Of a DNA stretch of 64,000 nucleotides, positions 10,016 through 55,667 are shown piece after piece. How positions within the stretch are numbered: the stretch's first letter is position 1; each line of letters starts with the position of its first letter. Location: the NCBI RefSeq assembly GCF_964213995.1, contig NC_135822.1:24118001-24182000 (forward strand). Reading direction: 5' to 3'. The DNA comes from Mustelus asterias (taxonomy: Eukaryota). The translations under genes were made by a program, and so were the position numbers. A model generated the notes under the pieces. It was not told the DNA's origin. It saw nothing but the letters and a program-made list of their open reading frames with translations, and made no database searches.

Positions 10016-10341
10016 ACACAGGCTGACTTCTGCATAGTACTACAAGAAAAGTGATGGCCCAGTGGTATTATCAGTAGACTATTAAGCTAGAAACTCAGTG
10101 AATGTTGGGGACCCACGTTCAAATCCCACCACGGCAGATGTTGGAATTTGAATTCAAAGAAAAAAATTCTTGAATAAAGAATCTACTGATTGTCGATTGT
10201 CAGAAAAACCCATCTGGTTCACTAATGTCCTGGAGGGTAGGAAATCCTGATGTGGAGATGCCGGCGTTGGACTGGGGTGAACACAGTAAGAAGTCTCACA
10301 ACACCAGGTTAAAGTCCAACAGGTTTATTTGGTAGCAAATA

Positions 10342-10378
10342 CCATAAGCTTTCGGAGCACTGCTCCTTCGTCAGATGG
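10342..10378 (-). ncRNA. Minimal hammerhead ribozyme motif (inverted arm, sense to DNAJC16 pre-mRNA)
   Basis: Reverse complement reads ccat-CTGACGA-aggagcagtgctcc-GAAA-gCTT-atgg. Confidence 0.85.
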
Positions 10379-10382
10379 AGTC

Positions 10383-10419
10383 CCATCTGACGAAGGAGCA
10401 GTACTCCGAAAGCTTATGG
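10383..10419 (+). ncRNA. Minimal type I hammerhead ribozyme motif
   Basis: ccat-CTGACGA-a-ggag-cagta-ctcc-GAAA-g-CTT-atgg. Confidence 0.85.
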
Positions 10420-11561
10420 TATTTGCTACCAAATAAACCTGTTGGGCTTTAACCTGGTGTTGTGAGACTTCTTACTGGGTAGGAAATCTGCCATCCTTAC
10501 CTGGTCTTGCCGACATATGACTCCAGAGCCACAGCAATGTGGTTGACTCTCAACTGCCCTCGGGCAACTAGGGATGGGCAATAAATGCTTGCCAGCCAGC
10601 AACGCCCATATCCCATGAATCTCTTACGGATAAGATGTTAAACCAAGTCAAATCTATCTCTCAAGTAGACAAAGTTCCAATGGTACTATTTGAAGAAAAG
10701 CAGCGGAATTCTCTTGGTGTCCTAGTCAATATTTATTCCTCAAACAATACAGCTCAAACAGATGACCTAGTCAATAATTTGTTCTTGTTTATGGGGCCTT
10801 GTTGTGCTGTGTCTCCTACAAGAGGCTATAATACGTTGGTTGCATGGCACTTTGTGAAACCCTGAGGTTATGAAAGGTGTCATACAAGTACAAATTTGCC
10901 TTTCATTTTTCCTTTCAAACACAGTGCAAAGCTGACCCGAATAATCTTGGCATCAACATCAATTGTACTTTCAATTGGCTTCATATCAGAGTGTAAATGT
11001 TTAGTAAGAGATTTATGTATCTGTTGGAGAATGAATGATCACATTTATGTCACTGAGTTCTAATGACCTTTTAAAAGTTTGTCAGAATTTCTCAATTGTT
11101 TCAATCCATTTTGTAACATGCAGCCAGCTAACCGATATTTTAATTTATTTGGGTAGGGTTTTATGACTCTCAGATCATCCCTCCATTCCTAAAACGTTAT
11201 TTTGGTCTTTTTCCCATGACATCTTTTCCCAAATTATCACAATGGCTCATCACCGTGTATCCTTTTCAGTACTAAGTAGGAAGTGACTATGTGATTCAGC
11301 CTAAGAGTGTACTAGCTATAGGGTGACAAGACTGGAAAATTTTGGCACCGAATAACCTACTTGTGCCACAGATTTAAAATATTCCACATACACTTTGCTA
11401 AAGCATAACACCACACCAGACATTAACTCAAGTCAAGGCAAGGCACATGTATCATAATAATTACTGCCCTGAAATTTTTAACATTTCAATAAAAGTTTAT
11501 ATCAATGAACACAAGAAAATCAGTGAGGCCTCATCCAGGCTGTGATTATTTGACTACACAC

Positions 11562-11746
11562 CTGCTCCAAAAGGTTGCTTGGCAGAAGGTTTTCCACAAA
11601 ATGTCTCAGATTTTCTCGAACTACAGTGGTTTTAAAGAATGTTACTCTTCCATTGATGACTCCAACAATTGCCGGGTGCTGATACACCCCGAGGTGATTT
11701 AACAGACGACGCTCATACCCTGAATCTATGACTCCAATCCCAAGGC
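11562..11746 (-). CDS. DNAJC16: DNAJC16 exon 5
   Basis: cag|GC...CAG|gtgtgt; GLGIGVIDSGYERRLLNHLGVYQHPAIVGVINGRVTFFKTTVVRENLRHFVENLLPSNLLEQ. Confidence 0.95.
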
Positions 11747-12149
11747 CTGAAAGGAAATTCAACAACAGATCACTTATTCCCTGTCACTCCATGAATACTG
11801 ACACGCTTTACTAGTTTGCATTTTATTTCCCCACAACCCGATCCCTCTAATTTTCTCTTTTCCCTCCGGGAAGCAGTGATTATGGGGCTGGGGGACCATT
11901 CCACAGGCTCTGGCTGTCCTATCACAGTTACCCAAGTAGCCATTCTTCACTTGATCCTGCACAGAGAGAACGAAAAAAGATGGTGCTGGAGCGAGGCGAC
12001 TTCTTGCGAGCTGTCACCACCCAGCATACCCTCTAATTTCATCATTTACTTCCATTCTGTGCTTTTAAAGCTGAACTCACTCCATTCTGCACCCTCTCCT
12101 TTCCTTTTCCCCTACGTAGTCCATGAACGGTATGTTTTGCTTGTACAAG

Positions 12150-13058: not shown

Positions 13059-13272
13059 AACTCCTTTATAGCTCAGAGCCACAGAGGCCAATTGCAGCAT
13101 CCAACTGACATCAGTTAACACAACAGAGACCAAAGGTTGCACCCAAGCCCTTTCTGGTTTATACATCAGAACACGGCACCACCTGTTGAGCCATCAAAAG
13201 TGCTCCTTGACTTTGAAGAGTTTCCCCTATCAAACAGAAACTTTGTCATCGATTATTTTGAGGCTGACATAC

Positions 13273-13606
13273 CCAGAGGTTCCAACTCCTGCACCAGCTC
13301 CTTCCAGATTGGCTCAATGTGAACGCAGCTGAAACACCAATCGGAAGTCACTTTGATGAGATACAGTTTCTTGTAACTGTCTGGCACAACCTCAGTCATG
13401 TACTGCGAGAAATGCAGTAAGTACTTATCGTCGAATGAGTCACGGGCAGAATTAAACTGGAACTGAAAAAAGGAGTCATCGAAGAAGAAGCTGTCGTATT
13501 TGTGGAAACCCCGGAAGTGGTGCTGCGCATGTTGGAGATTCCCTGGCTGTCCATCAGCATCTCCGTACTTATCAAAATTCGACCTCCTCTCCTCATTTGA
13601 AAGAAT
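13273..13606 (-). CDS. DNAJC16: DNAJC16 exon 4 (end of J domain, thioredoxin CxxC)
   Basis: tag|ATT...G|gtatgt; ILSNEERRSNFDKYGD...LIKVTSDWCFSCVHIEPIWKELVQELEPL. Confidence 0.96.
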
Positions 13607-16600: not shown

Positions 16601-17232
16601 GGATTCTATTCTATTCTTCCAAAAGGTATTTTATTGGCTGTAAAGCACTTTGGGATGTCGAGTAGTCCTAAAAGGAACTATATAAATATGAGTCTTCATT
16701 TTTACATTCACAGAATGTGAAGTACCACGCCTGAAGTAGGTATTATCCTGATTTATTTGATCTCCACATGGACATGAACTAATATCAAATAGTATAGAAT
16801 GTAGGGAAACTCAAGGGTTGTCAATAGTGCTGAGTCTATTTAGTGGCTTTATGGACTATAAGAAAAAATACCTATTGTAAATGGGTCTACAGTAGGAGCA
16901 GTATGAACTGTAACTTCTCCCCCATAGAATAACAATGAAAATATAATGTATAACCCATCTGACCAGACAATATTTGTGATGAGACACTTGATCTTTTGTT
17001 AATAACTCAAAGAACTGCTTTTTATGGAAAGATATTCTTGATTCTACCTACATAAAAGGAACTATTACTTAATTCATTAAGGAAATATCTATGCAACAAT
17101 AGAGTAAAATAATTCAGGCTTCAGAAAATCCTGACAAAACTCAAACAAATAGCAATGGACTTCAGTCATTACACATTGTAGGAAATCTATGAGTAAATCT
17201 TTATATTATTTCTACACAAAGATTTGAATTAC

Positions 17233-17299
17233 CTCGTATGCTTTGCTAATCTGAATGAACTGATCTTCTGCCTTTGGATCCTTATTCTTGTCAGGGTGC
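17233..17299 (-). CDS. DNAJC16: DNAJC16 exon 3 (J-domain HPD motif)
   Basis: cag|G CAC CCT GAC...GAG|gtaatt; HPDKNKDPKAEDQFIQISKAYE, 67 nt. Confidence 0.96.
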
Positions 17300-17487
17300 C
17301 TGAAAAATAAACAAACATTGCTACAATTTCCCCCCCACAGGGACACAAACAGTCACATCTTATTCTGCCGCAAGATTTTTCCACCAGCCCAACTACACAG
17401 AACTGACTTGTACATTTTTTAAAATAATTTTCATTTTGTTGTGTGCTTTTCTTTGCTGCTTTTCTCCCCTTCCCTTCTAAAGCTAGT

Positions 17488-19640: not shown

Positions 19641-19981
19641 CAAAGAGATTACAAGGGGTGCTCAGATGAAATCAAATTGTCGTTCAAACTTCACCAATGG
19701 TACAGCGCTTTAACAAACCTACAGATTTTGTTTCTAGTGTTGACAGGCTTTACTGCTTTCAAACCTTCTGTCCAGAGTTTCCTGAAGTTTGAAAGGCCAG
19801 CAAAATAAATCATACTGACCCCACATTCCCTTTCATGTGTTTCTTTAAGACCTGCCTCAGATGTCAGACTAGATTTATAAGGATGAACATTGCACTGGAA
19901 AAACGCAGTCCTTGGACACAAAGTCTACACACAGGTCTTTTCCCCAACCCAAAGATAACTAAAGTACAGGCAGAAACTCAC

Positions 19982-20154
19982 CACTCCCGAGCCAGTTGTT
20001 TGTAGGCTTTCTTTATTTCTGCTTGGGTTGCAGTTCTGCTGACTCCCAGTGATCTGTAAGGATCAAATTCTATTCCATGGTAGAGAGGCGTGATCAGCAG
20101 AAAGACTAAAAGCGCTAGCAACCTTCCAAAGGATGCCAACTGTAAACCAGCCAT
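19982..20154 (-). CDS. DNAJC16: DNAJC16 exon 2 (start codon, signal peptide, J-domain N-terminus)
   Basis: ttcag|A ATG; MAGLQLASFGRLLALLVFLLITPLYHGIEFDPYRSLGVSRTATQAEIKKAYKQLAREW|gtgagt. Confidence 0.95.
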
Positions 20155-21984
20155 TCTGAAAGTGATTTGAAATATGACAAATTAGGGCAATGATTCATAA
20201 CAAGAGGAGTCAGGAGTTCAAAATGACTCGGGGCCTTAAAAAATACTTCATTCAGAAGCTGAATTACAAAACTGATTCGCCCACTGTCTGTCGGAAGCGT
20301 TTAGCATAGTGACATGTGATGATAAATGATGAACAGCAGCAGAATCTTCAGGGTAGCCATTTCTGGCTGAAAGAACTTGGGAAGAGGGTTTAAGAAACAA
20401 AAATGCAACAGCAGCAACCTGTTCAAAGCGGACCATTTATTTGAAAACTGCGTACAGTTTTTAGTTACGGTTCTCATTTTAAGGAATAACCACCCTTGTA
20501 ACTTAATGCAAAAATATTGTTAAAGTTAATAAATATTCTCCACCTTTAAAAACATGATGCAGTTGGCATTCAGGACGGATTTGCGGTGATGTTAAACGGT
20601 AGGAGGATTAACAGAGTAAGGTATTTTCCTCTCCATCTCTCCTGATTATGGCTTCACAAGACAATGCAGGAGGTTTCCAAGAGTTAGTTTCGGCACAAGG
20701 ACAGCCACTGAGTGCCGGCAGGCTACTCAACCAGAAGGCCATCACTGCCATAACCAAACCTGTCTTCAATCATACACTTGACGCTTTCCAGCATTTGGGG
20801 AACTTAGTTGATTTTTTCATTCCTAGTCCAGGGACACCGAGCTTGACTGCAGCACCTTTGCTGAGATCGGCCAAAGAGTATCAAACCCGAGGTCTTCCTG
20901 GTACAATGGCTCAATGGATAAACAAAAGAATCACCAGGAGAGCTGGATGCAGATTTGATCTGCTCAGTTCTTCATCTGAATGATACCAAGTATAGAAACA
21001 TTGCATACAAGTTGGGTTACTGTACAGGCAAAATAGGCTGTATGGGGGGTGTGGTGAGATTCAATGCCTGATTGGCACAAACCTGGTGTCAATATTACCT
21101 AAAATCATCTAATACATCAAAAATATTTAAATTACAACTGTTCAAATGTCATAGCCATCAAAGGTAGTGAGTAGGTGAGCTTCACAGACTGCAAGATCTC
21201 AATTTCATTCCTGACTCCATTAAAACAGCAGCTGAACATGGGTACGTCAAAAAGAGATAGCTCAGGCACTGTCAAGGTATATTTCCTCAAAAGGGAAAGG
21301 TAGGGCAAACAAATCCAGAGCTCTCCAGATGACAAATGAAACAGAAATTATGATAAAGGCCTGTTTTGTGCTGTAGTTTTTCTATGTTTCTATCATGGGA
21401 CTTAATAGGATGGAGGGTTATAGGTAGGCCTAAAAGGTAGGGATATGTTCGGCACAACCTGTGGGGCCGAAGGGCCTGTTTTGTGCTGTAGTTTTTCTAT
21501 GTTTCTAAAGAAGAAAAGTGTGCTTATGACAGATATCATTTAGAAAATACAATTGCAAATCAGGCTGAATAAAGAACGTTCAGAGGAGAGGTGAAAAAGC
21601 AAATACTAGAAGCAAAGAGGGAGTATGACAAGAGACCGGCAGCTAACAAAAGAGATTCCCAAAGTCTTTTATTGGCATGTAAATAATAAAAGGGTAGTAA
21701 AAGGAGGAGGGCCGATTAGGAACAAAAGGGAATTTACATAACAATGTAATTAAAAAGAATTGATATGCTTTAATGGCAATTGCATTGTTTTAATACAATT
21801 ACACTGTTAAAAAAGGTAATGGGCATTTCTATACCTATAAATTGGGATAGCAGGGACATTGGAAATGGGGAGTAGAGTAGACTGTGAACTAAGTTAATAA
21901 CTCTCTCCAGCAAAGAAATGTCTTTGTTTTGACTTCACCATCCAGTATGGATCCAGTTAACATCACACATGGGAGCAGCAGCAT

Positions 21985-23110
21985 AGTCCCTCATGGCAGG
22001 CTGGTGCAAAAGGTTAAATCTCACGAGATAAAAGGTGAGCTAGCTCGATGGGTGGAGAACTGGCTTAGCCATAGAAGACAGAGGGTAGCAGTGGAGGGGT
22101 CTTTTTCCGGTTGGAGGTCTGTGACTAGTGGTGTTCCACAGGGCTCTGTACTGGGACCTCTGCTGTTTGCGATATATATAAATGATTTGGAGGAAGATGT
22201 AGCTGGTGTGATCAGTAAGTTTGCGGACGACACAAAGATTGCTGGAGTTGCGGATAATGATGAACATTGTCAGAGAATACAGCAGGATATAGATAGGCTG
22301 GAACATTGGGCGGAGAAATGGCAGATGGAATTTAATCCAGATAAATGCGAAGTGATGCATTTCGGTAGATCTAATGTAAGGGGGAGCTATACAATAAATG
22401 GCAGAACCATCAGGAGTATAGACACACAGAGGGACCTGGGTGTACAAGTCCACAGATCCTTAAAGGTGGCAGCACAGGTGGAGAGGGTGGTGAAGAAGGC
22501 ATATGGCATGCTTGCCTTTATTGGATGGGGCATAGAATATAAAAGTTGGCATATGATGTTGCAGCTGTATAGAATGATGGTTAGGCTACATTTGGAATAC
22601 TGCGTCCAGTTCTGGTCGCCACACTACCAGAAGGACGAGGAGGCTTTGGAGAGAGTACAGAGAAGGTTTACCAGGATGTTACCTGGTATGGAGGGTCTTA
22701 GCTATGAGGAGATTAGGTAAACTGGGGTTGTTCTCCCTGGAAAGACGGAGGATGAGGGGCGACCTAATAGAGGTGTATAAAATTATGAAGGGCATAGATA
22801 GAGTGAACAGTGGGAAGCTTTTTCCCAGGTCGGAGGTGACGAACACAAGGGGTCACGGGTTCAAGGTGAGGGGGGCAAGGTTCAACACAGATGTCAGGGG
22901 GACGTATTTTACACAGAGGGTGGTGGGGGCCTGGAATGCACTACCAAGCAAGGTGATTGAGGCGGACACGCTGGGATCGTTTAAGGCTTATCTAGATAAC
23001 CACATGAACAGACTGGGAATAGAGGGATACAAAAGAATGGTCTAGTGGGCGCATGAGCGGCACAGGCTTGGAGGGCCGAAGGGCCTGTTCCTGTGCTGTA
23101 TTGTTCTTTG
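21985..23110 (+). mobile_element. CR1/HER1-like LINE, 5'-truncated, RT domain to 3' tail
   Basis: VTSGVPQGSVLGPLLFAIYINDL...KFADDTK; one frameshift near 22710; CR1 tail gggccgaagggcctgtt. Confidence 0.95.
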
Positions 23111-24584: not shown

Positions 24585-24920
24585 TGGCGGCACGGTAGCA
24601 CAGTGGTTAGCACTGCTGCCTCACAGCTCCAGGGACCTGGGTTTGATTCCCGGCTTGGGTCACTGTCTGTGTGGAGTTTGCACATTCTCCTCGTGTCTGC
24701 GTGGGTTTCCTCTGGGTGCTCCGGTTTCCTCCCACAGTCCAAAGATGTGCGGGTTAGGTTGAGGCTATGCTAAAATTGCCCCTTAGTGTCCTGAGATGTG
24801 TAGGTTAGAGGGATTAGTGGGTAAATATATAGGGATGTGGGGGTGGGGCCTGGGTGGGATTGTGGTCGGTGCAGAGTCGATGGGCCCAATGGCCTCTTTC
24901 TGTGCTGTAGGATTTCTATG
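24585..24920 (+). mobile_element. HE1-type V-SINE
   Basis: Full head, V-domain and CR1-like tail. Confidence 0.85.
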
Positions 24921-24921
24921 A

Positions 24922-37457: not shown

Positions 37458-37566
37458 ATGGACGAAGGAGCAGCACTCCGAATGCTAGTGATTTCAAGCA
37501 AATCTGTTGGACTATAACCTGGTGTCGTCTTGTCCACCCCAGTCCAACTCTGGCATCTCCACATCA
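37458..37566 (+). mobile_element. Degenerate Penelope-like terminus inside an old CR1 fragment
   Basis: ggacgaaggagcagcactccgaatgc...catctccacatca; TSD taagtagag at 37449-37457 and 37567-37575. Confidence 0.75.
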
Positions 37567-41102: not shown

Positions 41103-42204
41103 TATAATTCTGCTGGCCAAGGTGTCTCACGATTGCTTAGTTTGAGCGACTGAATTTGTGTTTGATCAGACCAAGGTCAATCCCACTTAACACAGTATTA
41201 GCATCAAATGGAGGGTATCCTCAGTGTGAAGTCAGGACTGTGCCGGCATGAGGACGGTGTGGTCGTAACATTTATAAATGCTTTTGTGAACCAATGTATC
41301 ATGACAATTAAGAGTGGTGATGATGTGATCAAGCAGTCTCCTGTGATGGCTGTCTTACCATTAGTAACAATCCCATACTGGTGGCTACATCCTTTAGGAC
41401 TCGGGTAGCCTGGTCAGTGGTGGTTCTCCCGAGATATAATTGCTGATTGATTGCTCCCCAATGCAGTAAAATCTCTGGAGGACTGATTCATCAGCTGAGT
41501 GGGGGGGTAGGAGATAGTAATCAGCAGGAGGTTTTCTTGCCTATGTTTGACCTGTCGCATGAGGCATCATGGAGTTTGGACTCACTGCTGAGGACCCTCA
41601 GGGCCACTCCTGACTGTGTACCACACTTGGCCCATTTCTGATCGACCTGTCCAGCTAATAGGACAGGACGCACTCAGGGATGCTAATAAAAGAATCTGAG
41701 ACTACACTTTAAAACAAAAAGTACTCCATTGGCTGTATGGTGCTTTGAGATGTCTGATGGTCATGAAAAGTGCTAAATAAAAGTCCTTCTTTCTTTTCTT
41801 TATGTCAGGTTAACTAGTTTGTAGGATAGCCCCTCAATTTAGGCACCAGATCCGTGGTGTTGTAAGGAGGACTTTGAGGGGTCGCCTGGGATGAGCGTGC
41901 TTTTTTTAAGTCCTGATTTGATTCTTCTGTTGCAGACGAGTTTTGATATTCCTTGCAGCAGTTTGATATAACTGAATGTCTTGCTGGGTAACTTAAGAGG
42001 GCAGTTAACAATGAAGCGACTGTCCTGGGCCCAGAGTCACATATAGGCCAGATGGGATAAAAGCGGCGGGTCTGCTTCAGTAAAATGAATGGTTGGGTTT
42101 TTATGACAATCTGAAAGCTTCATACTCACATTTACTGATACCTTTATCCACAGGTTTTATTTCAAAACTAACTTTAAATTCTCTAATTGCCATCCAAAGT
42201 TTAA

Positions 42205-42499
42205 AATTTATTTATTAGTGTCACAAGTAGGCTTACATTAACACTGCAATGAAGTTACTGTGAAAATCCCCTAGTCGCCACACTCCGGCACCTGTCCGGG
42301 TACACTGAGGGAGAATTTAGCATGGTCAATGCAGCTAACCAGCCCATCTTTCGGACTGTGGGAGGAAACCGGAGCACCCAGAAGAAACCCACACAGACAC
42401 AGGGAGAACGTGCAAACTCCACACAGACAAGGGGCCGAAATTGAACCCGAGTCCCTGGCGCTGTGAGACGCAATGCTAACCACTGTGCCACCATGCCCC
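42205..42499 (-). mobile_element. V-SINE, tail B
   Basis: Reverse complement of head/V-domain/tail B. Confidence 0.82.
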
Positions 42500-42874
42500 C
42501 AGGTGGGCTTTGAACACAGATGCTGTTGTTTATTTGTGTAGGCCACTGGATTACAAGTCCAGCTATATAACCACTCCACTACCGTCTCTTGACAGCAAAT
42601 ATTTCAGTGTGGATTTGACCATTGTTTCTAAGGCTGTGTTAAAGCAATAATCCATCTAAACAAGGCAATAATAGGAGAATAATAGTGCCCACAAAAGACT
42701 CAGGAACAAGATTAGAAGGACTCTGGTTATGGTTGTATAGCTGAATATTTGAACTAACTTTTGAATATGGTCACTGGCTGCTTAACAATACGCCAATAGT
42801 TACTACACTGATTATTCTCAATGCTTCTAATAGGCAATCCACTTCCACAACTCAGCAAGAATTATGGCACCTAC

Positions 42875-43025
42875 CTCCACCACAAGCCTGAATGAAGAAT
42901 AATTTGGGCTTTTCACGCAGTGTCGGGCAGTGTGAACCATCAAAGTAGCTGACAATATGCTGAACTGGAACTGGTTTACCCCCATCCACTCCGAAAATTG
43001 CTCCAGGAAACTGCCTGTGCTGAGC
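42875..43025 (-). CDS. CASP9: Caspase-9 exon 6 (catalytic Cys, QACGG)
   Basis: cag|[50 protein letters not shown]|gtaggt; QACGG is characteristic of caspase-9. Confidence 0.97.
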
Positions 43026-44609
43026 CTGAGTAGAGAAACATGTGCGTGATGTTCAACATTATGACAGCAGGGTATGCATCTACACCAAGGCAAAGTGGCT
43101 ACTGTATTTACACTGCAATGTACACCAATACCCAGCTAATGTTTGTTACTGTAAAAAGGATAATATACATACAAACACTTGTTCTATATATTGACATGTG
43201 TCTTGTAAACATAATGATGGGGTGAAAGTCTTCTGTCTGATAGACATACTGCAAACTGCAATTCTTGCTCAGAGAGCAGACAACAGAGGCTAATACAAGA
43301 CATGTAAAATGCCACTGTTGCTGTAAGTGGTAAGTTCTGAGGATGCAATTGAGGTACATTATTGGGAGTGAAGTATTAGATAGCTTTACTCTGTGTCTAA
43401 CACATGCTGCACCTGACCTGGTAGGGCTTAATGTTTCTAATAAGTGCCTGAAATCAGGAAAAATTCCATTCCACAGTATAAATATTCTTCAGCTAAAGGA
43501 ACATAAAGTTTCACACAAATACGAAAGTTTTTGTTCTCAGAATTAATCATTCTTACTCATCGTGTGTCACATATCCTTTCATTTAATTGTTCCTCCAGCC
43601 TATTTCTGCAAGTAGATTTGACTTCTCTTTTTGTAAGCACTCCCACACCATGCATCATCTGGCAGCTAAAAATGATTATGAGGCTTAAGCCAGCTTCATG
43701 ACAAATGTACACTTGGAACTGACCTTTGATTATTTTTCTTTGTTATCACCTTAGGCTGGAATATTTGACCTGGACAAAAGGTTCCTTCATTTTCTCATCA
43801 AATGAAGCAGAAATTCAGTAACAAATAGGTACAAGTTCTTCCAAAACAGTTACCTTATATCCTTAGAGGCTTCAAGTTCAAAACTCAAGGGTTTGTAAAG
43901 TGCAAGTTTTGGTCCGTGGGGTTTGTAAAAAGGTCATGACCACACCATGGAATGAAGACAAATGGGCAATTTGTTCATTCAAGTTCATCGGTTGTCACTT
44001 AACAACTTACATTTGTCAAAAACATTTTGCAATTTTCTTATTCTAATTCAACAACAAAAGTGGAAAAAAACCCAGTGTCAGGATATTAAGGTGTTTTTAC
44101 TTTATATCCTTTTAGAATGTATTAACATTTGAAATTAAAATGAAACTGTCCGTACATCTTTTCAGCCGTTCCAGAAGTTGAAGTTTAACAAATGACATCC
44201 ACCAAGCACTTCACAATGATAAAGACAAACAACAAAAAGCTACAAATAGTGAGAATCGGAAATATAATCATGCTGGAAACACAGATCAATTCAGCATTTA
44301 AGAGAGAAAGGAATACTTTTCTCAAATATTAACTTGTCTTTTCTCTCTGACTGACACTGGTGAACCTGCTGTATTTCTGGCAATTTTTGTCTTTGCTTCA
44401 GTTCTCCTGAATGGCTTGTGTCAGGGATCGCTCCAATGGACTTTGTTGGGACTCTGTCCTTTGCAGCAAAAGGAACTGGGACCTGAAGGGACACGCAGGT
44501 CTTTGGGAAAAACTTCCCACCTCAGTGTAGCGGCTCAAAGATTGTGCACAAGCTTGTTTGTAAATCCCACCCAAGGGCAGTGCATCACGGACAGTGGTGA
44601 CTGTTGTAC

Positions 44610-44921
44610 ATAGATCATAGAATCCCTACAGTTCAGAAGGAGGTCATTCGGCCCATCGAACCTGCACCGAGAACAACCCCACTCAGGCCCCATCCCCTCA
44701 AGTCCACGTATTTACTGTTAGTCCCCCTGAAGGGCAATTTGCCAGGGTCTATCAGCCTAACCCACACATCTTTGGAGTGTGCGAGGAAACCGGAGCACCC
44801 GGAGGAAACCCACGCAAACACGGGGAGAACGTGCAGACTCCACACAGACAGTGACCTCAGGCCGGAATTCAACCCGAGTCCCTGGCGCTGTGAGGGCAGC
44901 AGTGCTAGCCACCGTGCCGCC
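44610..44921 (-). mobile_element. HE1-type V-SINE
   Basis: Full head, V-domain and CR1-like tail on - strand. Confidence 0.85.
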
Positions 44922-45208
44922 TAGAGCCATTTAGAACTATCACTGGATTAAGGAAGAGAAATATTTCCAAGTCAGGTTCAGTGAGAAAAGAACAGGAAAA
45001 CTAGGGCAGAAAGAGAAGTAGAAAGTAGAAAGAAATAAAAGTAGCAATCAAGTGACAGAACCAAAGTGAAAAAACACTAAAACACATAAACAGAAGTAAA
45101 ACAAAACAAGAAATTTTCACCCCTATTGTTTAAATATTACTAATCTACTGGACTAAATTATGCCATGCAATTATTGTGCCTACTGCTTAAATCAGTATTT
45201 GGACCCAC

Positions 45209-45298
45209 CTGACTGCCATGTGAAAGAATAACCACAATACAGCAGTTAAAATCCGTATGGTCCTTGCGAGCTAGATTAGTCAACTCCTCTATCATCAA
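45209..45298 (-). CDS. CASP9: Caspase-9 exon 5 (catalytic His, SHG)
   Basis: cag|LMIEELTNLARKDHTDFNCCIVVILSHGSQ|gtgggt, 90 nt. Confidence 0.96.
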
Positions 45299-46218
45299 CT
45301 GTCAGAGAGAAACAATAACAGAATGAGGAAACACCAACTAATCCAGGATGCAACATGTTAAAAATAAGATTTCCACAAATCAACAGGGAACATGGAATCC
45401 ATTGATCTGTTTTACCAGAGCAAGTGAAAAGTGGTAGGGAGTCTGGGGAAAAAGAAAACCATAAGGTAGGAAGTCCTTCCAAATGTTTGTAACGCAGACG
45501 GTTTCTGGTATGGATAAAGTCATTACATAAATATTAACCCTTCTGCTATGTCCAACTCCAGCCGCTGGTTGGATAGATAGGATGCACTGTCTAGCAATTG
45601 AAACCAGACCTTTCAGGAGGGAAATTAGGAAACACTTAAAGGCTGGCACAAGTACGGAACTCTCTTCTGCAAATGGCAATTGACGCGAAGTCAATCCTTA
45701 CTTTCATATCGGAGATTGATCAATGTTTGTTGACCAAAGGTATTAAGGTTCCAAATCAGTCTTGATCTCATTGAATGGGTGGGACAGGCTTGAGGGGCCA
45801 AATGCCTACTCCTGTTCCTATTGTGTAAAAGGCTCAAAGAGGTGTGCCTGCCTGTTTTTGATTCAAGCCTGACTAAATTCTCAAGTTAACTGCTATATTC
45901 TAGGAACAGAGTTACATAACTTGGTCTGGCTGATGATAAATCCGGCGAAAATATGAGAGATTATACAAGGCTCCTGGTGAATTTGGATGGCCCTCTGTAA
46001 CTCTTGGTGTGCTATTCATTACAGAGGGGGCAATCTTGCTTTGAGCAAGTTCAATAACTCCTTTTTTATGGCTCTTTGGAACACATTTAGTTGGTTAGAC
46101 CGAGATTCCTTTGCAAAGTGTCTGAGGCGAGGCTGTGCTGCCTTCTACAGGCGCATCATGTGCTCTATGACCGATAATGACAAATCAAAGATTATTAGTG
46201 GTGTGAGAAAATACTCAC

Positions 46219-46395
46219 CTGTTTGGTCAAATTTCTTTTCACAATAACCTCAAAATGCAATTTCTGAAAGAGATTTTGCACATTTTCACAGTCGATGTCA
46301 GAGCCTGTGCGACAAGTCAGACCACTGCTTTGATCAAAATCCACATTGTTGATGATCAGACAAAAGCCACAAGGGTCAGCGTCCATTTTGTAAAT
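46219..46395 (-). CDS. CASP9: Caspase-9 exon 4
   Basis: tag|IYKMDADPCGFCLIINNVDFDQSSGLTCRTGSDIDCENVQNLFQKLHFEVIVKRNLTKQ|gtgagt, 177 nt. Confidence 0.96.
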
Positions 46396-46499
46396 CTAGA
46401 GATGGGGAAAAGGGAAAAGTGAAATTCACAGGAACACTTCCTGAAAATGCAAATGTAATTTTCACTCAGTACAGTCTCTGCTTGACTTCCTTCCTTAAA

Positions 46500-47807
46500 T
46501 ATGGAGATCAAAACTGTGCACCTGCTCAGCAATAACCTGCTCAGCAATAACCTCCTCAGTGACGCCCAGTTTGAGTTTCGCCAGGGTCACCCAGCTCCTG
46601 ACCTCATTGCAGCCTTGGTTCAAACATGGACAAAAGAGCTGAATTCCAGAGGTGAGGTGAGAGTGACGGCTCTTGACATCAGGGCCGCATTCGACCGAGT
46701 GTGGCATCAAGGAGCCCTAGTGAAACTGGAGTCAATGGGCATCAGGGGGCAAACTCTCCGCTGGTTGGAGTCATACCTGGTACATAAGGTGGTGGTTGTG
46801 GCTGTGGAGGTTCAGTCATCTCAGCTCCAGGACATCTCTGCAGGAGTCCCTCAGGGTAGTGTCCTAGGCCCAACAATATTCAGCTGCTTCATCAATGACC
46901 TTCCTTCCATCATAAGGTCAAAAGTGGGGATGTTCGCCAATGATTGCATAATGTTCAGCACCATTCGCGACTCCTCAGATACTGAAGCAGTCCATGTTCA
47001 AATGCAACAAGATCTGGACAATATCCAGGCTTGGAATGACAAGTGGCAAATAACATTCGTGCCACACAAGCGCCAGGCAATGACCATCACTAATAAGAGA
47101 CACTCTGACCATCGCCCCTTAACATTTAATGGTGTAACCATCACTGAGTTCCCCCACTGTCAACATCCTTGGGGTTACCATTGACCAGAAACTCAACTGG
47201 ACTCACCACATAAACACAGTGGCTACAAGAGCAGGTCAGAGGCTAGGAACACTGTGGCGAGCCTATCCACAATCTACAAGGCACAAGTCAGGAGTGTGAT
47301 GGAATACTCCCCACTTGCCTGGATGGGTGCAGCTCCAACAACACTCAAGAAGCTCGACACCATTCAGGATAAAGCAGCCCACTTGATTGGCACCACATCA
47401 ACAAACATTCAATCCCTCCACCACCGACGCTCAGTAGCAGCAGTGTGTACTATCTACAAGATGCACTGCAGCAATTCACCAAAGATCCTTAGACAGCATC
47501 TTCCAAACCTACAACCATTTTTATCTCGAAGGACAAGGGCAGCAGATACATGGGAACACCACCACCTGCAAGTTCTTCTCCAAGCCACTCACCATCCTGA
47601 CTTGGAAATATATCGCCGTTCCTTCACAGTCTCTGGGTCAAAATCCTGGAATTCTCTCCCTAACGGCACTGTGGGTCAACGCAGAGAACATGGACTGCAG
47701 CGATTCAAGGCGGCAGCTCACCGCCACCTTCTCAAGGGCAACTAGGGATGGGCAATAAATGCTGGCCAGCCAGCGACGCCCATGTCCCACAAATGAATAA
47801 AAAAAAA
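46500..47807 (+). mobile_element. Non-LTR retrotransposon (CR1/L2 group), RT and 3' end
   Basis: ALDIRAAFDRVWHQG...GVPQGSVLGPTIFSCFINDL...FAND; ends aatgaataaaaaaaa. Confidence 0.93.
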
Positions 47808-47989
47808 CAATACTCCAGGAGTGGTCTCTCCTTCTGCTTCATTCACCAGTTTGTGTCCTGTACAATTAAAACTTCCTTATTCTTGTACTCTTAATCCCTT
47901 TACAATAAAGGCCATTTGATTCCTAATTGCACCTACATGCTAACCTTCTGTGTTCCTTGTATGAGTAGACTCAAGTCTAACTTTACTTT

Positions 47990-48525
47990 CTCAGAAAGGA
48001 AATTCGGCATGTCAGCTACGACTCTCACCAACTTTTACAGATGCACCATAGAAAGCATTCTTTCTGGTTGTATCACAGCTTGGTATGGCTCCTGCTCTGC
48101 CCAAGACCGCAAGAAACTACAAAAGATCGTAAAGGCAGCCCAATCCATCACGCAAACCAGCCTCCCATCTATTGACTCTGTCTACATTTCCCACTTCCTC
48201 GACAAAGGAGCCAGTATAATTAAGGACTCCACGCACCCCGGACATTCTCTCTTCCATCTTCTTCCGTTGGGAAAAAGATACAAAAGTCTGAGGTCACATA
48301 CCAACCGACTCAAGAACAGCTTCTTCCCTGCTGCCATCAGACTTTTGAATGGACCTACCTCGCACTAAATTGATCTTTCGCTACACCCTAGCTATGACTG
48401 TAACACTACATTCTGCTCTCTCTCATTTCCTTCTCTATGAACGGTATGCTTTGTCTGTATAACGCGCAAGGAACAATACTTTTCACTGTATGCTAATACA
48501 TGTGACAATAATAAATCAAATCAAA
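47990..48525 (+). mobile_element. Rex1/Babar-type LINE 3' fragment
   Basis: LTNFYRCTIESILSGCITAWYGSCSAQDRKKLQ...TNRLKNSFFPAAIRLLN; tail aataaatcaaatcaaa. Confidence 0.85.
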
Positions 48526-48706
48526 GTCCTTCTGAACATCAACATTTATAAATTTCACGTCTATTGGTTTGTACATACAGGAAATCTCCAAAAACTGTAT
48601 CCGCAGAAATTGAATTTGGGACTGAATTATCCTCAACGCCAGCTAACATCCTTCACAAAACTCAACAAGTAAATAGTTTGTATAGAATACTGATATAACC
48701 ACTCAC

Positions 48707-48762
48707 CATGTCATCCTGTAGTCTTTCCATAATTGATTTACTTGGAGGTCTGAGATCTGTAC
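48707..48762 (-). CDS. CASP9: Caspase-9 exon 3 (short linker exon)
   Basis: tttcag|GT ACA GAT...ATG|gtgagt; 56 nt, phase 1->0, bridges exons 2 and 4 in frame (TDLRPPSKSIMERLQDDM). Confidence 0.75.
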
Positions 48763-48799
48763 CTGAAACACAAGGACACAAAATTGTGATGCACCTTTC

Positions 48800-51440
48800 T
48801 CCATAGAACAATTCTCCAAGTCATTTACATTTCAAAACTCCAAACTGCCCAGCTTTGTGGCCTTCCATTCGCCACAATGTTTCTACCACTGTCATCCCAC
48901 TTGACACCCTCTCCTCTCCACATTTTGATTTCTTTATCTTTGGTAAAATCTTTACTCTCTCTCGTTCTGACCACTGCTCCTGGTTTAGGCCCTGTCTTTT
49001 ATCTCTCATGTCCAAGGGATGTAGACTGAAGCAAAACTGATGCACAACTGGTTTGGGCATCACCAAATCTGACTAGACCATGCAAGTGCAATTAGATTAC
49101 ATTCACCTCGACTATGCTGCCTACTTCTGGAGAGCAGAAGAACACCTCTGGTTGCTTTTCTTAACTATCAATCACCCCTTGAATCTTTTCCACTCCCCCT
49201 CCCGCCTCCCCAATCTCCTCCAGCCTCACCTCCTGCAAGATTGTGAAGCTCATAGACTTTGTCACCAAGGCAAACCTCCCTTATCTTCACCCATCAAATC
49301 AAACCTCTCTTTCAGGCTTCTCCTCCCCTGACCTTGATGCTGCTTCATTCTCCAGTTTGTGCCCTACATCCCCATCCAAGCTCACCTTGCTCATGAAACC
49401 TACCTTCTGCTGTCTTGACCACAATTCTACCAAACTACCGACCATTTAACTACCCTTCCTCTCCATGGGCATCATTCTCATCTCTTTCAAAACTGGCGCA
49501 AAGAAAAACAACCCTCAATCCTTAAGACCTCACATACTACCATCCAGGCTCCAAACTCCATTTTGGCTCCAAATACCTTGAATTTCTTGCTTCCAAAATT
49601 TGTGCCCGCCTTTACTACAAATATGGAACTGGTCATTCAGGTTACCACCTTGAAACAGTCTTAATCTGAGTCACAAAACATATCCTCGGTGATCGTGGTA
49701 CATTTTACTTCTCAAACACCTGCAGGACTTGACATGGTTCTCACACTAGCCTCCCCTAACCCTTCTCCTCTTTTGTGCAGCTCAGTTGGACTTCCCACTT
49801 CTGGGCTCCATTCTCAATTGTGCAAATGGAGCCAGTGCATCTCTGGTCATAGTTTTTCTTTCCAACTGCCCCAACACCATCATCTCTGAATCTATCCTTG
49901 ACCCACTCCTCTTCCTGATCTATTTGTTGTTCCTCAGGGCAACTTCTAATTTCCAGTACTTATAGGCTCAATTTACTCAGCCTCTCACTGTAGGATAACC
50001 CCCTCATTCCAGGGATCGATCAAGTGAGCCTTCACTACGCTGTCTCAAGAAGGCAGGTATATCCTTCCTTAAGATACGGAGATCAAAACTCTGCACAGTA
50101 CTCCAGGTGTAGTCTCACCAAAACACCCTTTAGACCCCTTAAGACTTCCCTTAAGACCCCCTTAAGACTTCCTTCTTCAGCTTCTATATGTATGCTAATG
50201 ATGCCCAGTACTACCTCACAAACACATCTCTCAACCTTTCCACTGCCTCGGTGGCGTCAGATGCTTTATTGACATCAAGCATTGGCTGCACTGTGTTTTC
50301 CTCATTAAATATTGGGGAAATATTTGCTCCCTGTGCTTGCCGACCTACATAGGTTCCTGATTTTAAAATTCTCATTTTGTTTTCATGGCCTTGTCCCTCC
50401 CTATCTTTGTAATTGTGTTCCAGCCCTGTGTATGCCTACATTTGTCTTAATTCTGGCCTCTTGACCATCCCAATTTTTATTCACACCACCATTCGTGGCG
50501 GTACCTTCAGTTGCCTAGGCCCTAAGCTCTGAAACTGGCTCCCTACTTTCATTTCTACCTGTAAGACCTTCCTTAAATCAACCTATTTGGCCAAGCCTTT
50601 CATCACTTGACCCACTACACGGCTATATCACATTTTGTTTTATAATGCTCCTGCAAAGCATCTTGGGATGTTTCAGTACATTAAAAGGTGCTATACGAAT
50701 GTAAGTTGATGTCATTGAAAAACAAAGCCATTGCTTTTGATCACAGCCAGAAACTCTGGACCTTTGCCTATGATTCCATTCCCTTATTCAGCTGATATCC
50801 CAGGCTAATCCATACCGTTCTCAACCTCAGCATCTTATTTGATCCCGAGTTGAGTTTCTGATACATCCTCCCTGTCCACCTCTGTAACATTGCACATCTC
50901 TGCCCCTATTCTGCCCATCTGCTGCAGAAACTTACATCCATAGTCTAGCCTTGACTGTTCCAATGCTGTCCTGGACAGCCTTCCATACTCTAAACTTCAG
51001 CCCATCAAATTCTCTGCTCATCAAATTGAATCCCACACCAGGTCCTGCTGACTTGCCCTCATTGTTTTTGCTATCATACTTTGGCTCCCGGTCCCTCATA
51101 TTCTAAAATCTAACCATCCTCTTGTTTAAATTCCTTCTTTGCCTCGACTTTCCTACCTCGCAGAACTCCTTTATAAGTTTCATCCCTCGAATTCCCTCTT
51201 TTTCCATTTCCAACCGCTTGAGCATTCTTCTCACTACCTTACTATTGGCAATCCTCTGGTCCTGAGATTTCCATCCTTAACCCTTCTGCCTTGCCATCTC
51301 CCCAAGGCTTCCTTCAAACTCACTTCTTAACCAAATATCTCCTCATCCGGCTCCACCTCCATCTTTGCCTAATTACACCTGTATAAATACCCAGATGTTT
51401 TTCTAGGTTAAAGATTTTATATAAATGCAAGTTGCTGTTA
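48800..51440 (+). mobile_element. Highly degraded L2-like LINE relic with nested fragments
   Basis: Pyrimidine-rich, L2-like ORF2 remnants; no open frame. Confidence 0.5.
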
Positions 51441-51625
51441 CATTCTCTACACACTGTTTTTTTCAGATCCTGCTTGTACTGATGCTGGATTCCGAAATCA
51501 AAATGTGTTTACATTTTACCCCAATGTTAGTTTTTATTAAGTGTAAGCTTAAAGTGTTTTCAAAGATGAGAAGTAGAAAACTCGTTTATGCAGGCTGTAA
51601 TAAGTGGCATCCTTAGAATGTGAAA

Positions 51626-51908
51626 GGGCAGTACAGTGGTTAGCACTGCTGCCTCACAGCGCCAGGGACCCGGGTTCGATTCCCGGCTTGGGTCACTGTC
51701 TGTGTGGAGTTTGCACGTTCTCCCCGTGTCTGCGTGGGTTTCCTCCACATGCTCCGGTTTTCTCCCACATTCTGAAAGACGTGCTGGTTAGGTGCATTGA
51801 CCCAAACAGGCGCCGGAGTGTGGCGACTAGGGGAATTTCACAGTAACTTCATTGCAATGTTAATGTAAGCCTTACTTGAGACCAAAAAATAAACTTAAAA
51901 AAAAAATA
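51626..51908 (+). mobile_element. V-SINE with alternative tail B (other copies at about 4040-, 13742, 27267-, 37843-, 42205-, 57153, 61283-)
   Basis: Same head/V-domain, but ends gtggcgactaggggaatttcacagtaacttcattgcaatgttaatgtaagccttacttg + A-rich. Confidence 0.85.
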
Positions 51909-52444
51909 AATGCAAGTCTTTCTTTATGGCAGATCTCACCCATGCTCTTTTATAGTATATCAAACCAGTTTGAAAGTGCGCACACTTCACAGCCGCAATG
52001 AATTATTTTATAGCAAAAAAACAATGTTCATGTTTAATCAACATTCCATTGAACGGAGTTGAGAACAAAAAAAATGCAGTCCCTATCTTTCATTCCCAAT
52101 GTTTCTTTGATATATCAGTTTCATCGTCCTTGTCTGTCTTCCTAAGTTTCTGAACCACTTGCTAAATCAGATTCCCTTCACGTTTGCTGTACCATTTTGT
52201 GCACCATTCAAACCTTTTGCCCCATTAGCCTCCGATTTAATTCTTTAGACGTCTTCCCAATGGGAGGAAAGGGAGGGCGAAGCAACTGTTCAACACCTGC
52301 CGAAACACAATGCTGGGACTTTTATAGTCTCAAGCTCAGTAGCTACAAACTGGTCCCAGATTAGCCACTAAATAGTAACCAGAACAGGGTTAAGGTAAAT
52401 CCATATTGTCAAGCAATCAGTTTCTTCAAACACAACCTGCGTAC

Positions 52445-52685
52445 ATTGGACAGGGTGAGAAGTCCTGGTGTCCTTCTGTACAGGTTTATATCCTTTCCGG
52501 GGTTCAACTGGTTTAACAGGGGTGAAGGGCCTGTCATGGACAGCGAGCCCATCTCGCAGCAAATCAACAAGCTCAACTTGTCCAGTTTCCTCCAGACTTT
52601 CCAAAAAAGCAGGAAATGCTCCTGTCCCACGGGTCTGCAGGTCAGTTACCAACTGACGGGCCTGGTCCCGGCGTGTTCCCGAATT
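52445..52685 (-). CDS. CASP9: Caspase-9 exon 2 (CARD C-terminal half)
   Basis: tag|NSGTRRDQARQLVTDLQTRGTGAFPAFLESLEETGQVELVDLL...; donor T|gtacgc chosen for phase (alternative phase-0 donor at 52437). Confidence 0.88.
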
Positions 52686-53092
52686 CTACAGTCAAAGAAA
52701 ATTCTGTAAACTACATTTTGACGATCATTTAAATACTGTAATTTCAAACTTAAGCAGTATTCATACATTGTCACAATGTTAGCTGGCATTTGGTTTATTT
52801 CAATGGCTAATCTTCCAGAATTCCATCAAGACAAACAGTAACCAAAGGAGGATTTCAAACAGAAGTAGGAAACAGTAGAAACAGCACATTCACAAACCAG
52901 TTTACAACAACTTATATAAACTTGAAGATACACTTCTATTCCTAAACTGTGTCTGGCTATGTCTCAAACATGATGTTTTTAAATTCCCTTGATCTTCCTG
53001 TATTTTAATAATTTTACTCCATTTGCAGAATTAAAAAGCCAATGCACCAAGCGGACAGAGCAAGCCCCCAATCCAGCATCCTGCCTACTCAG

Positions 53093-53892
53093 GAGTTTAA
53101 CCCTGATAAATGTGAGGTGATTCATTTTGGTAGGACAAATTTAAATGTGGATTACAGGGTCAAAGGTAGGGTTCTGAAGACTGTGGAGGAACAGAGAGAT
53201 CTTGGGGTCCATATCCACAGATCTCTAAAGGTTGCCAGTCAAGTGGATAGAGCTGTGAAGAAGGCCTATAGTGTGTTAGCTTTTATTAACAGGGGGTTGG
53301 AGTTTAAGAGCCGTGGGGTTATGCTGCAACTGTACAGGACCTTGGTGAGACCACATTTGGAATATTGTGTGCAGTTCTGGTCACCTCACTATAAGAAGGA
53401 TGTGGAAGCGCTGGAAAGAGTGCAGAGGAGATTTACCAGGATGCTGCCTGGTTTGGAGGGTAGGTCATATGAGGAAAGGTTGAGGGAGCTAGGGCTGTTC
53501 TCTCTGGAGCGGAGGAGGCGGAGGGGAGACTTAATAGAGGTGTATAAAATGATGAAGGGGATAGATAGAGTGAACGTTCAAAGACTATTTCCTCGGGTGG
53601 ATGGAGCTATTACAAGGGGGCAAAACTATAGGGTTCGTGGTGGGAGATACAGGACGGATATCAGAGGTAGGTTCTTTACGCAGAGAGTGGTTGGGGTGTG
53701 GAATGGACTGCCTGCAGTGATAGTGGAGTCAGACACTTTAGAAACATTTAAGCGGTTATTGGATAGGCACATGGAGCACACCAGGATGATAGGGAGTGGG
53801 ATAGCTTGATCTTGGTTTCAGATAAAGCTCGGCACAACATCGTGGGCCGAAGGGCCTGTTCTGTGCTGTACTGTTCTATGTTCTATGTTCTA
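53093..53892 (+). mobile_element. Young CR1/HER1-like LINE 3' fragment
   Basis: Open frame EFNPDKCEVIHFG...LVRPHLEYCVQFWSP...; (ttctatg)n tail. Confidence 0.93.
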
Positions 53893-54052
53893 CTCCAAAA
53901 ACCAACTTGAATTCAAATCGAATTCAATTCATGGGACACACTACATCCAAGCTGACCACAACAAGCACCACACCTGATCCCATGCTCGATTTCACACTTG
54001 ATCTCAGCCAAAAGGCCTTTTCTGTTGTTTTCTTGGATGTGTCCTGTCTCAA

Positions 54053-54358
54053 GGGTGGCATGATGGCACAGTGGCTAGCACTGCTGCCTCACAGCGCCAG
54101 GGATCCATGTTCAATTCTGGCCTCATGTCACAATCTGTGTGGAGTTTGCACATTCTCCCCGTGTCTGCGTGGGTTTCCTCCAGTTTCCTCCCACACTCCA
54201 AAGATGTGCGGGTTAGGTGGATTGGTAAATTGCCCCTTAGTGTCAGGGGGATTAGCAGGGTAAATATGTGGGGTTATGGGACAGGGCCTGGGTGGGATTG
54301 TTGTCGGCGCAGACGCGATATGCCAAAAGGCCTCCTTCTGCACTGTAGGGATTCTATG
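54053..54358 (+). mobile_element. HE1-type V-SINE
   Basis: Head, V-domain and CR1-like tail. Confidence 0.85.
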
Positions 54359-55030
54359 GGTTCAATAGTGTCCTTAATCACAAACATTCATTTTTAACTG
54401 TGTAGAGCTGATTTGCTCTATTCTTGAGAGTTACTCATTACTGTCGCAGCTGAACTTAACTGATGGCACAGAGCAGGGTTAAAAACCTGTAACTTGACGG
54501 TTTCTTTGGCTCAGTCTCACAACATGCAATGTATTTTCCCATTAAATCAGGTGAACACTCAAGTTCTCCAGGTGTATAAATAAGATTTGAAATCTATTTA
54601 AATATGTAGAGCTAGCTTAATTATCAACCCTTGGATTTTTGCATCATCAAAGATGGCCCATACAAAAAAAAACACAAGAGGATTATACAATTACGGCAAT
54701 ATTCCAGTCAGGGATTCAATTCTAAGAGATGTGGAAAGTAGCTTGAGAATGAAGGGCAGGACTATGGGCACAAGGAAACAGATTTGTTTAGGGTTTGCAT
54801 ACAAAATAATAAATATAGACGACAGAATAGAAAAGGAACAAGACAAGCAGACAAAGTTATTAAAACATTTTATTCGACCTGACTTGATTTCCTTAAGTTA
54901 TTTTGTTGTACAGTACTGGTTGCAGTGCTTAATATTTGAAACACCACAGAAGCAATATATATAATCAGTTAATACACTAGTAGATTTAATTATTGCAAGA
55001 TCCAAATAAGTATGTTTCAACAATTATTTG

Positions 55031-55227
55031 TGATGTGGAGTTGCCGGCGTTGGATTGGTGTAGGCACAGTAAGTAGTCTCACAACACCAGGTTAAAGTCC
55101 AACAGGTTCATTTGGTAGCACGAGCTTTCGGAGCGCTGCTCCTTCATCTCTCACTCGCCTGATGAAGGAGCAGTGCTCCGAAAGCTCGCGCTACCAAATA
55201 AACCTGGTGTCGTGCGACTACTTACTG
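55031..55227. mobile_element. Fold-back Penelope-like terminus in CASP9 intron 1
   Basis: Same tgatgtggag...cttactg architecture; TSD caacaattatttg at 55018-55030 and 55228-55240. Confidence 0.85.
55156..55190 (+). ncRNA. Minimal hammerhead ribozyme motif
   Basis: cgc-CTGATGA-a-ggag-cagtg-ctcc-GAAA-g-CTC-gcg. Confidence 0.85.
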
Positions 55228-55667
55228 CAACAATTATTTGAAGTGTGCAACTGTATATCAAAACAAGCAAACAGAACTTAAAGTACAGTAAAGGTAATAA
55301 CTCATGCTATTTTATGCAAGTTTACACATTTAACTGTTATTTGTTGTACTTAAACAATATTAATTGTTCAACTCAGTTGGCTGACGTGTAGTTCAGAATA
55401 AATCACAGATTTACAGAATAGTCACAGTGCAGAATAAAGCCATTTGGCCCATCATGTCAGCACTGGCAACAGCACAGATTCAATTCTTGTTCCAGCTGAG
55501 GTAGGCTTGGGAGCTATCTCCTCACCTGCCCCATGGTTGATGCAGATGGTACCCCTCACGGTATATAACCAATTGTCCTCTCTAATGAGAGGAAATATAT
55601 ATATAATTATCATCTTGCTGACATGATAGGCTTCCACAGGTGTCTGCAGGTACCTCACATTGCCAAT

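Follow-up and report, generated by a model that had tools for sequence, protein, structure and literature searches.

A stretch of 64,000 nucleotides from the shark Mustelus asterias (contig NC_135822.1, positions 24,118,001 to 24,182,000; hereafter the window) carries seven insertions from one family within the Penelope-like elements (PLEs), four of which are head-to-head palindromes flanked by perfect target site duplications (TSDs). Judging from the sequence, the insertions are almost certainly 5'-truncated copies of a Neptune-type, endonuclease-bearing (EN+) PLE. This architecture is already published for PLEs, and the shark case is another instance of the inverted-plus-tail pattern. For the origin of the palindromes, an even chance is given to a reading in which one RNA is read twice by one complex, both complementary DNAs (cDNAs) end at the RNA 5' end or at a common stall, and the two are then end-joined.

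The seven insertions and their junctions

The seven 3' ends of the family were gathered by a local search of the window, and the palindromes among them by an inverted-repeat scan. They comprise the four palindromes (A to D), two tailed single copies (E and G) and one tail-less single copy (F). All seven are 5'-truncated and lie between flanking repeats of 9 to 14 bp. An earlier note on this DNA had reported the four palindromes, and all of them were found again.

Palindrome A (insert 10247-10476, minus strand) has its tail on the left and arms of about 94-98 nt with a 4-nt loop just 5' of a hammerhead ribozyme motif described below; its 12-bp TSD occupies 10235-10246 and 10477-10488. Palindrome B (25445-25660, insert 25457-25648, plus strand) has its tail on the right, 77-nt arms, a 2-nt loop with the apex in hammerhead helix II, and a 12-bp TSD at 25445-25456 and 25649-25660. 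Palindrome C (40273-41115, minus strand) has an insert of 817 bp (40286-41102) with identical 386-nt arms around an 11-nt loop, bounded by a 13-bp TSD at 40273-40285 and 41103-41115. Palindrome D (55018-55240, insert 55031-55227, minus strand) belongs to a more diverged subfamily and has a 12-nt loop, a 13-bp TSD (55018-55030 and 55228-55240) and an additional 16-nt deletion in its tail-less arm (55161-55227). The two arms agree at 92/94 positions in A, 76/77 in B, 386/386 in C and 45/49 in D. With D left out, the shared core shows 0-1 letter differences between sister arms, compared with 2-8 between different insertions. The four apices all differ and at least three subfamilies are represented. 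The variable turn-around point described earlier therefore holds for the positions as such, but three of the four apices cluster in the hammerhead or just 5' of it, and the centre of C is doubled and of non-family sequence.

This centre (40648-40774) contains a 50-nt non-family segment (40725-40774) that is mirrored at 40648-40697, with re-inverted pieces of the end of the element's open reading frame (ORF), 8 and 18 nt long, between the mirrored segments (40698-40724). According to the contig alignment, the main line of the family departs from C at 40643-40646. A source of the 50-nt segment was found neither in the window nor in the flanks, of which about 1 kb was covered on either side. It is possible that C was copied from an already palindromic parent, and is thus of a second generation, or that it was rearranged in place.

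Copy E (26575-27079, plus strand) is a tailed single copy. It opens with the last codons of the GIY-YIG ORF, which ends at about 26747 and has a frameshift near its start, and continues with the 3' untranslated region, the hammerhead, AATAAA and the tail, a 35-nt stretch between the inner and outer 3' ends (27045-27079, plus strand). Its flanking repeat of 10-14 bp (26561-26574 and 27080-27093) lies within a short interspersed element (SINE). Copy F (27779-28121, minus strand) is a tail-less single copy that ends at the inner junction, and its 10-bp TSD (27769-27778 and 28122-28131) lies inside the end of a host repeat. It had been proposed that the copy at 26575 links the terminus to a GIY-YIG ORF end and that the copy at 27779 is a lone arm at the same junction. 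Both proposals were borne out, and copy F additionally has its own TSD and extends into the ORF end. Copy G (37458-37566, plus strand), which is absent from the earlier note, is a short tailed single copy that begins in the hammerhead core and has a 9-bp TSD at 37449-37457 and 37567-37575.

The direct flanking repeats of A, B, C, D, E, G and F measure 12, 12, 13, 13, 14, 9 and 10 bp, respectively, and are perfect for all four palindromes. As a control for chance, 5000 random pairs of 30-nt flanks were compared, of which 3 shared a word of at least 12 letters and 27 one of at least 9. The 14-bp repeat of copy E is partly ambiguous because an internal GGTTTCCTCC repeat is natural to its host SINE. 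The unpaired tail, previously put at about 35 nt, measures 34-38 nt; it occurs in six of the seven insertions and is missing from all four inverted arms and from copy F. These five tail-less ends are spread over no more than about 5 nt, at ...CTTA(C)(TG), and the tailed ends finish at or near CACATCA, so the shared outer junctions described earlier are near-fixed. In all four palindromes, the element 3' end abuts both TSDs and exactly one tail is present. No TSD sequence consensus was evident by eye, and no microsatellite targeting was seen at the seven sites.

The integration of palindrome C was examined with contigs of four public runs (X1, X5, X19 and X21, out of 22 runs listed), which were aligned to the surrounding region (39300-42100). 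Both of the two other-organism runs (X1, organism A, and X5, organism B) contain the orthologous empty site, in which 40272 joins 41103 directly and the 13-mer is present once, as expected for a genuine TSD. Both outer junctions show 0 differences from short-read contigs of X19 (organism J), which is possibly the source sample and thus not independent. Because of the empty sites in two organisms and the exact matches at the outer junctions, palindrome C is not an assembly fold-back, a point on which the earlier note had made its reading depend. That the palindromes are artefacts of this kind is extremely improbable: no contig listed spans the apex of C, but its flanks are contiguous in both other organisms, and contigs of all four runs contain head-to-head apices of further copies.

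The orthologous comparison covers palindrome C only, of the seven insertions. Within the window, paralogous host-repeat copies near 10579-10588 and 47753-47762 carry the 10-mer of copy F once, and in a rough alignment one paralogous host-repeat copy at about 31852-31870 has the TSD motif of palindrome A once. Of the 18 SINE pairings listed for copy E, most have the internal repeat that is natural to the SINE, and the collapsed form is seen in one. For B, C, D and G, no paralogous empty sites were found within the window.

Other copies of the family were also seen in the contigs of the four runs. Loose contig ends from other copies coincide with the tail end of C at 40284 in 756, 196, 491 and 1818 contigs across the four runs, and a second pile lies at 40318, 34 nt inside the tail end, with 261, 237 and 358 contigs in three of the four runs (both from the best 24 rows, with 2193 further). 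The best-supported 15 of 1038 joints all lead from the left arm to the right arm, which corresponds to head-to-head apices, at varied positions and in up to four runs. These 15 joints are apices of other, shorter palindromes, and the pattern is family-wide in at least three organisms. Some contig apices have a 1-nt loop or an added CC, and 9 of the 15 joints listed in X19 share 1-3 letters. The summed contig depth in X19 amounts to millions over the arms compared with about 25 over the unique flank and was not used as a copy number. Beyond the tail end at 40284, the plurality letters in all four runs complete an ATG on the element sense strand, and the tail possibly stops where the next tandem unit has its start codon.

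Identity of the element and its hammerhead motif

The assignment to the Neptune type is based on the 57-aa ORF end, which matches 17 proteins among 70 candidates; the 10 of these for which a species is named all come from sharks. Over 53 aa, the ORF end shares 75 % identity with the C-terminus of the database protein P0008, which carries RVT_1, and the close homologues P0002 and P0005 match GIY-YIG. The layout of the homologues is a reverse transcriptase (RT), followed by CX4CxxC and a GIY-YIG domain with two internal cysteines, with the linker reading CHSNLCKTC in P0008, P0003 and P0005 and CHGNLCKTC in P0006. The single ORF with RT and C-terminal GIY-YIG that characterizes EN+ PLEs is thus found in the family, with the window itself holding only its last codons. 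The CX2-5CxxC linker between RT and EN that defines the Neptune type (PMC8557442) is present in the database homologues only, not in the window, and Neptune is itself reported as paraphyletic (PMC8557442). The Penelope/Poseidon clade requires the absence of this linker and was rejected, as the linker is present in the homologues. The insertions themselves show further hallmarks of EN+ PLEs, namely 5' truncation with a variable TSD, a tail of 34-38 nt, and an inverted, 5'-adjacent head-to-head copy (four of seven). The earlier description of these as PLE insertions that include an inverted copy, a 3' extension and genuine TSDs is upheld.

Miniature inverted-repeat transposable elements (MITEs) and related DNA transposons have symmetric terminal inverted repeats and a fixed short TSD. 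This class was rejected since the ends found here are made asymmetric by the tail, the TSDs range from 9 to 14 bp, and the arms are retroelement 3' ends. Retrozymes of the non-LTR type (that is, without long terminal repeats), which are defined by tandem repeats of hammerhead-bearing units (10.64898/2026.07.22.740005), were rejected as well, since no tandem array extends over the copies and the units are inverted or single. A full-length unit in partial tandem, with a direct pseudo-long terminal repeat (pLTR), was not found in the window. Pfam gave no match in the 57-aa ORF end itself, and no relative of solved structure was found for P0008. The conserved core was matched 0 times in pattern scans of metagenome, viral and prokaryote contigs, and a protein-alignment scan of metagenome contigs gave 407 pattern matches with 0 confirmed relatives. 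The shark database proteins P0003, P0012 and P0014 are fusions of the endonuclease end of the PLE with Pyrin, XRCC5 or PPP1R12A-like models, and are probably due to annotation read-through or exonised inserts.

The PLE arms contain a minimal type I hammerhead ribozyme motif, which is absent from the earlier note. It is located at 26952-26986 in copy E (plus strand), with a predicted cut after 26983, and at 41005-41041 in the right arm of C (plus strand), with a predicted cut between 41038 and 41039 (mirror 40384/40383). In a hand-drawn structure of six arms, 52 of 54 cells are paired and three pairs are changed on both sides, within few and related sequences. The core motif, the bulged base before helix II, the short helix I and the palindromic helix III agree with the minimal type I hammerheads of metazoan PLEs (PMC4209133). 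In Schistosoma, hammerhead pairs were reported 100-700 bp apart on opposite strands (PMC4209133). The shark copies differ from the hammerheads of that study in that they are not tandem retrozymes and the opposite-strand pair represents one TSD-bounded insertion. Rfam gave no hammerhead family match in the window, and folds of five hammerhead and two tail stretches were no stabler than shuffles (z -1.2 to +0.5), which provides no folding-energy support. All 16 Rfam matches obtained were below the gathering score and lie on hairpins (15 microRNA families and one cis-regulatory element); they were discarded as hairpin look-alikes.

Formation of the palindromes

Inverted 5'-truncated copies with a 30-40 bp tail at one end are typical of PLEs (PMC8557442). 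Pen2a_Av of Adineta vaga has an inverted pLTR, a 31-bp tail, TSDs of 8-10 bp and head-to-head junction palindromes (PMC3846280), and Penelope of D. virilis has a 34-37 bp repeat and variable inverted termini (PMC2377424). The shark insertions share with such complex EN+ PLE insertions the 5' inverted head-to-head copy, the tail at one end, the TSD around the whole insert, the 5' truncation and the junction palindromes. They differ in that the palindromes, which make up four of the seven copies, consist almost only of two inverted ends with (nearly) no ORF and have TSDs of 12-13 bp. PAc, a Poseidon element of Anolis carolinensis, is alike in its two 3' ends about 35 nt apart, the hammerhead in the pLTR and the use of both target strands, but belongs to another clade, and the main text of that study is without discussion of inverted copies (PMC11167929). 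In vitro, reverse transcription by PAc begins at two internal positions, one on either side of the tail; both strands of the target undergo nicking and extension, and the study predicts a dimer (PMC11167929). Part of the double-priming inference is thus already in print for this element.

According to the favoured reading, the GIY-YIG nickase would cut both target strands 9-14 nt apart, giving rise to the observed TSD, although nicking by this family is itself presumed. Each freed 3'-OH would then prime RT at one of two RNA sites about 35 nt apart, yielding a tailed and a tail-less arm; the fixed ends and the single copies of both kinds suggest these two sites. Both cDNAs would be made from the same RNA in one complex and would stop at almost the same point, at the RNA 5' end or where the hammerhead fold causes a stall, as suggested by the loops of 2-12 nt, the one tail per palindrome and the arm identity. 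Host repair may then join the cDNA 3' ends head-to-head, with an overlap of 0-3 nt or a few added letters, and fill the second strands. If only one priming were successful, a plain tailed or tail-less copy would result. The palindromes would be dead-on-arrival by-products, for which nothing points to a role in the host.

An element 3' end at both TSDs is the geometry expected of two target-primed events. Copy F, a tail-less single copy with its own TSD, shows that the inner site functions as an ordinary 3' end, and copies E and G represent the outer end alone. The arms stop 2-12 nt apart in all four palindromes, even at about 390 nt, for which a crude joint probability of about 0.004 is obtained if they were independent. 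One tail in all four palindromes has a similarly crude probability of at most 0.06 if the start sites were chosen independently. Since the arms stop together and each palindrome carries one tail, the arms must be coupled, either by one RNA being read twice or by fold-back of a cDNA. The double-priming model of the earlier note is thus retained in its geometry, its fixed ends and its agreement with copy F, but not in its independently truncated cDNAs. Its literal form, in which two separate RNAs or two independently random-truncated cDNAs are joined at their ends, fits the geometry and the two fixed ends and is in line with the predicted dimer of PAc (PMC11167929). Nevertheless, it is very improbable, given that the arms stop at most 12 nt apart in four of four palindromes and are closer to each other than to any other copy.

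Fold-back, though less probable, is a serious rival explanation for the same observations. Here, a tail-primed cDNA would stop, snap back and copy itself, and would then be cut or halted, by the endonuclease or by repair, about 35 nt short, at the tail boundary, and joined to the other target end. It accounts for the 2-12 nt loops, the identical arms and the one tail without extra assumption, and the tail has been attributed to endonuclease-mediated resolution of an intermediate (PMC8557442). Successive template switches would be one way to depict the doubled centre of C, and the 1-3 shared letters at 9 of the 15 joints listed in X19 as well as the absence of a strand preference for the start site in vitro (PMC11167929) also favour fold-back. 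However, a second mechanism is needed for the inverted arm to share its end with the tail-less single copy F, and loops of 1-2 nt, as in B and in contig fillers, are hard to prime by snap-back; apices with 1-nt loops or an added CC fit end-joining better. With copy E as the reference in place of A's own parent, the apex of A shows no evident templated microhomology, and the loops of D and C are part of the tail-less arm, so that the tail-less strand would have had to fold. In the literature searched, with most subscription papers outside the scope, the only fold-back model found for PLEs is the self-priming proposal of PMC3846280. This proposal, made for rotifer Penelope elements, in which self-priming on an antisense transcript makes the palindrome before integration, is an improbable explanation here. 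It is the published reading of head-to-head junction palindromes (PMC3846280), and an intronic palindromic insert would be transcribed in both senses, but in vitro a sense RNA serves as the template for target priming at internal sites (PMC11167929), and self-priming alone leaves the fixed outer ends and the clean TSDs unexplained. There is likewise little to recommend a non-autonomous palindromic family, or palindromes that arose or were homogenised only once inserted, through template switching in replication or through gene conversion. Palindrome C resembles a copy of a palindrome, with its duplicated 50-nt centre and 386/386 arms, and some identical apices have a high summed depth in the contigs. 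Yet the four apices differ, at least three subfamilies are involved, the arms of A, B and D differ by a few letters, and identical short apices are expected to recur given very many copies. This explanation may hold for C alone.

Several observations weigh against one RNA being read twice. The near-symmetric apices, the identical arms and the one tail are predicted equally by fold-back. The start site of PAc in vitro is the same on both strands (PMC11167929), which alone gives no strict one-tail pattern, and PAc is a Poseidon element whereas the shark family is of the Neptune type. The sample of four palindromes is small and the probabilities are crude. The pile of loose ends at 40318 is 1-5 nt off the inner junctions of the window and its consensus ends in variant-tail letters; it supports the second fixed end only in part and is partly an alignment effect. 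The remaining 1023 joints could include tail-to-tail or very asymmetric ones, and the apex of C lacks a bridging contig among the rows listed.

In L1 twin priming, one RNA is the template for priming from both target nicks, and joining of the cDNAs results in an inversion. There, the site of the second primer is variable and far upstream, and the two parts are without overlap. In the shark palindromes, in contrast, the starts are fixed and adjacent, so that the product is palindromic. Judged by its listings, the literature searched contains no stated twin-priming model for PLEs, with older subscription papers and supplements outside the scope.

A more specific version of two readings of one RNA by one complex assumes that the apex marks the RNA 5' end, that the abundant short class was cut by the hammerhead and that some palindromes were re-copied. 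This version is regarded as doubtful. Among the 19 distinct apex coordinate pairs visible in the listed contig rows, five have an arm that ends at most 1 nt from the predicted hammerhead cut and only two run more than 2 nt beyond it. At a sixth apex, 40375/41047, two of the four fillers listed rebuild the helix I strand of the other subfamily and thereby place the ends of both arms at most 2 nt from the cut. Many recurrent apices at the cut are an unproven lead, drawn from the best-supported rows. Against it, these rows are the best-supported few and several have unknown letters between the arms. The turn-around point coincides with the cut in none of the four palindromes of the window; the ends of A, B, D and G lie about 13-40 nt beyond it, in the ribozyme or just 5' of it. 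For PAc, cleavage was found not to be needed in vitro, and RNA reads that end at the cut were looked for and not found (PMC11167929).

Genomic surroundings and implications

The palindromes are located among host genes and other repeats. A caspase-9-like gene on the minus strand has exons spanning 38690-52685, with a CARD exon nearest to caspase-9 at 52368-52685 and caspase-domain exons at 46210-46383, 45200-45301 and 42870-42965 as well as a weak one at 38690-38795. Palindrome C is situated between two caspase-domain exons, and the intron carrying it apparently belongs to this gene. DnaJ and thioredoxin exons at 19981-20124, 17225-17313 and 13253-13606 (minus strand) belong to a gene which we take to be DNAJC16-like, and which appears to be in tandem with, and downstream of, the caspase gene. 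A GC-rich stretch at about 26060-26260 (minus strand) with a splice-donor-like end near 26065 may be the first exon of the DnaJ/thioredoxin gene, and copies B, E and F surround it.

Copies A and F are inserted in a 3' end resembling that of a long interspersed element (LINE), and copy E in a SINE; one SINE is present about 20 times across the window. ORF fragments of LINE-type reverse transcriptases lie at 21893-23045, 46486-47745 and 53012-53809, and two of them match RVT_1. An imperfect hairpin element at 24920-25085, with 76-nt arms that are 84 % complementary, is unrelated to the PLE; it has one partial relative at 28615-28697 and is possibly a MITE-like repeat. A tandem array at 55663-56004 consists of 4.7 copies of a 73-bp unit with 94 % matches.

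The density of one palindrome per 15 kb given earlier is correct within the window (four in 64 kb) and is a rate for this window only. Palindromic inserts imitate microRNA hairpins and MITEs, break short-read assemblies and place long perfect hairpins in introns; palindrome C would give such a hairpin in the precursor messenger RNA of the caspase-9-like gene. The PLE papers call the origin of the inverted copies and the tail unresolved and the role of the hammerhead unclear. Being short, bounded by TSDs and readable at their ends, thousands of such palindromes would allow double priming to be separated from fold-back by counting, and would also reveal whether ribozyme cleavage shapes the template in vivo. 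If the reading with apices at the RNA 5' end and hammerhead cleavage is true, shark genomes would preserve, as a very large fossil record, both PLE priming and in vivo cleavage by the ribozyme.

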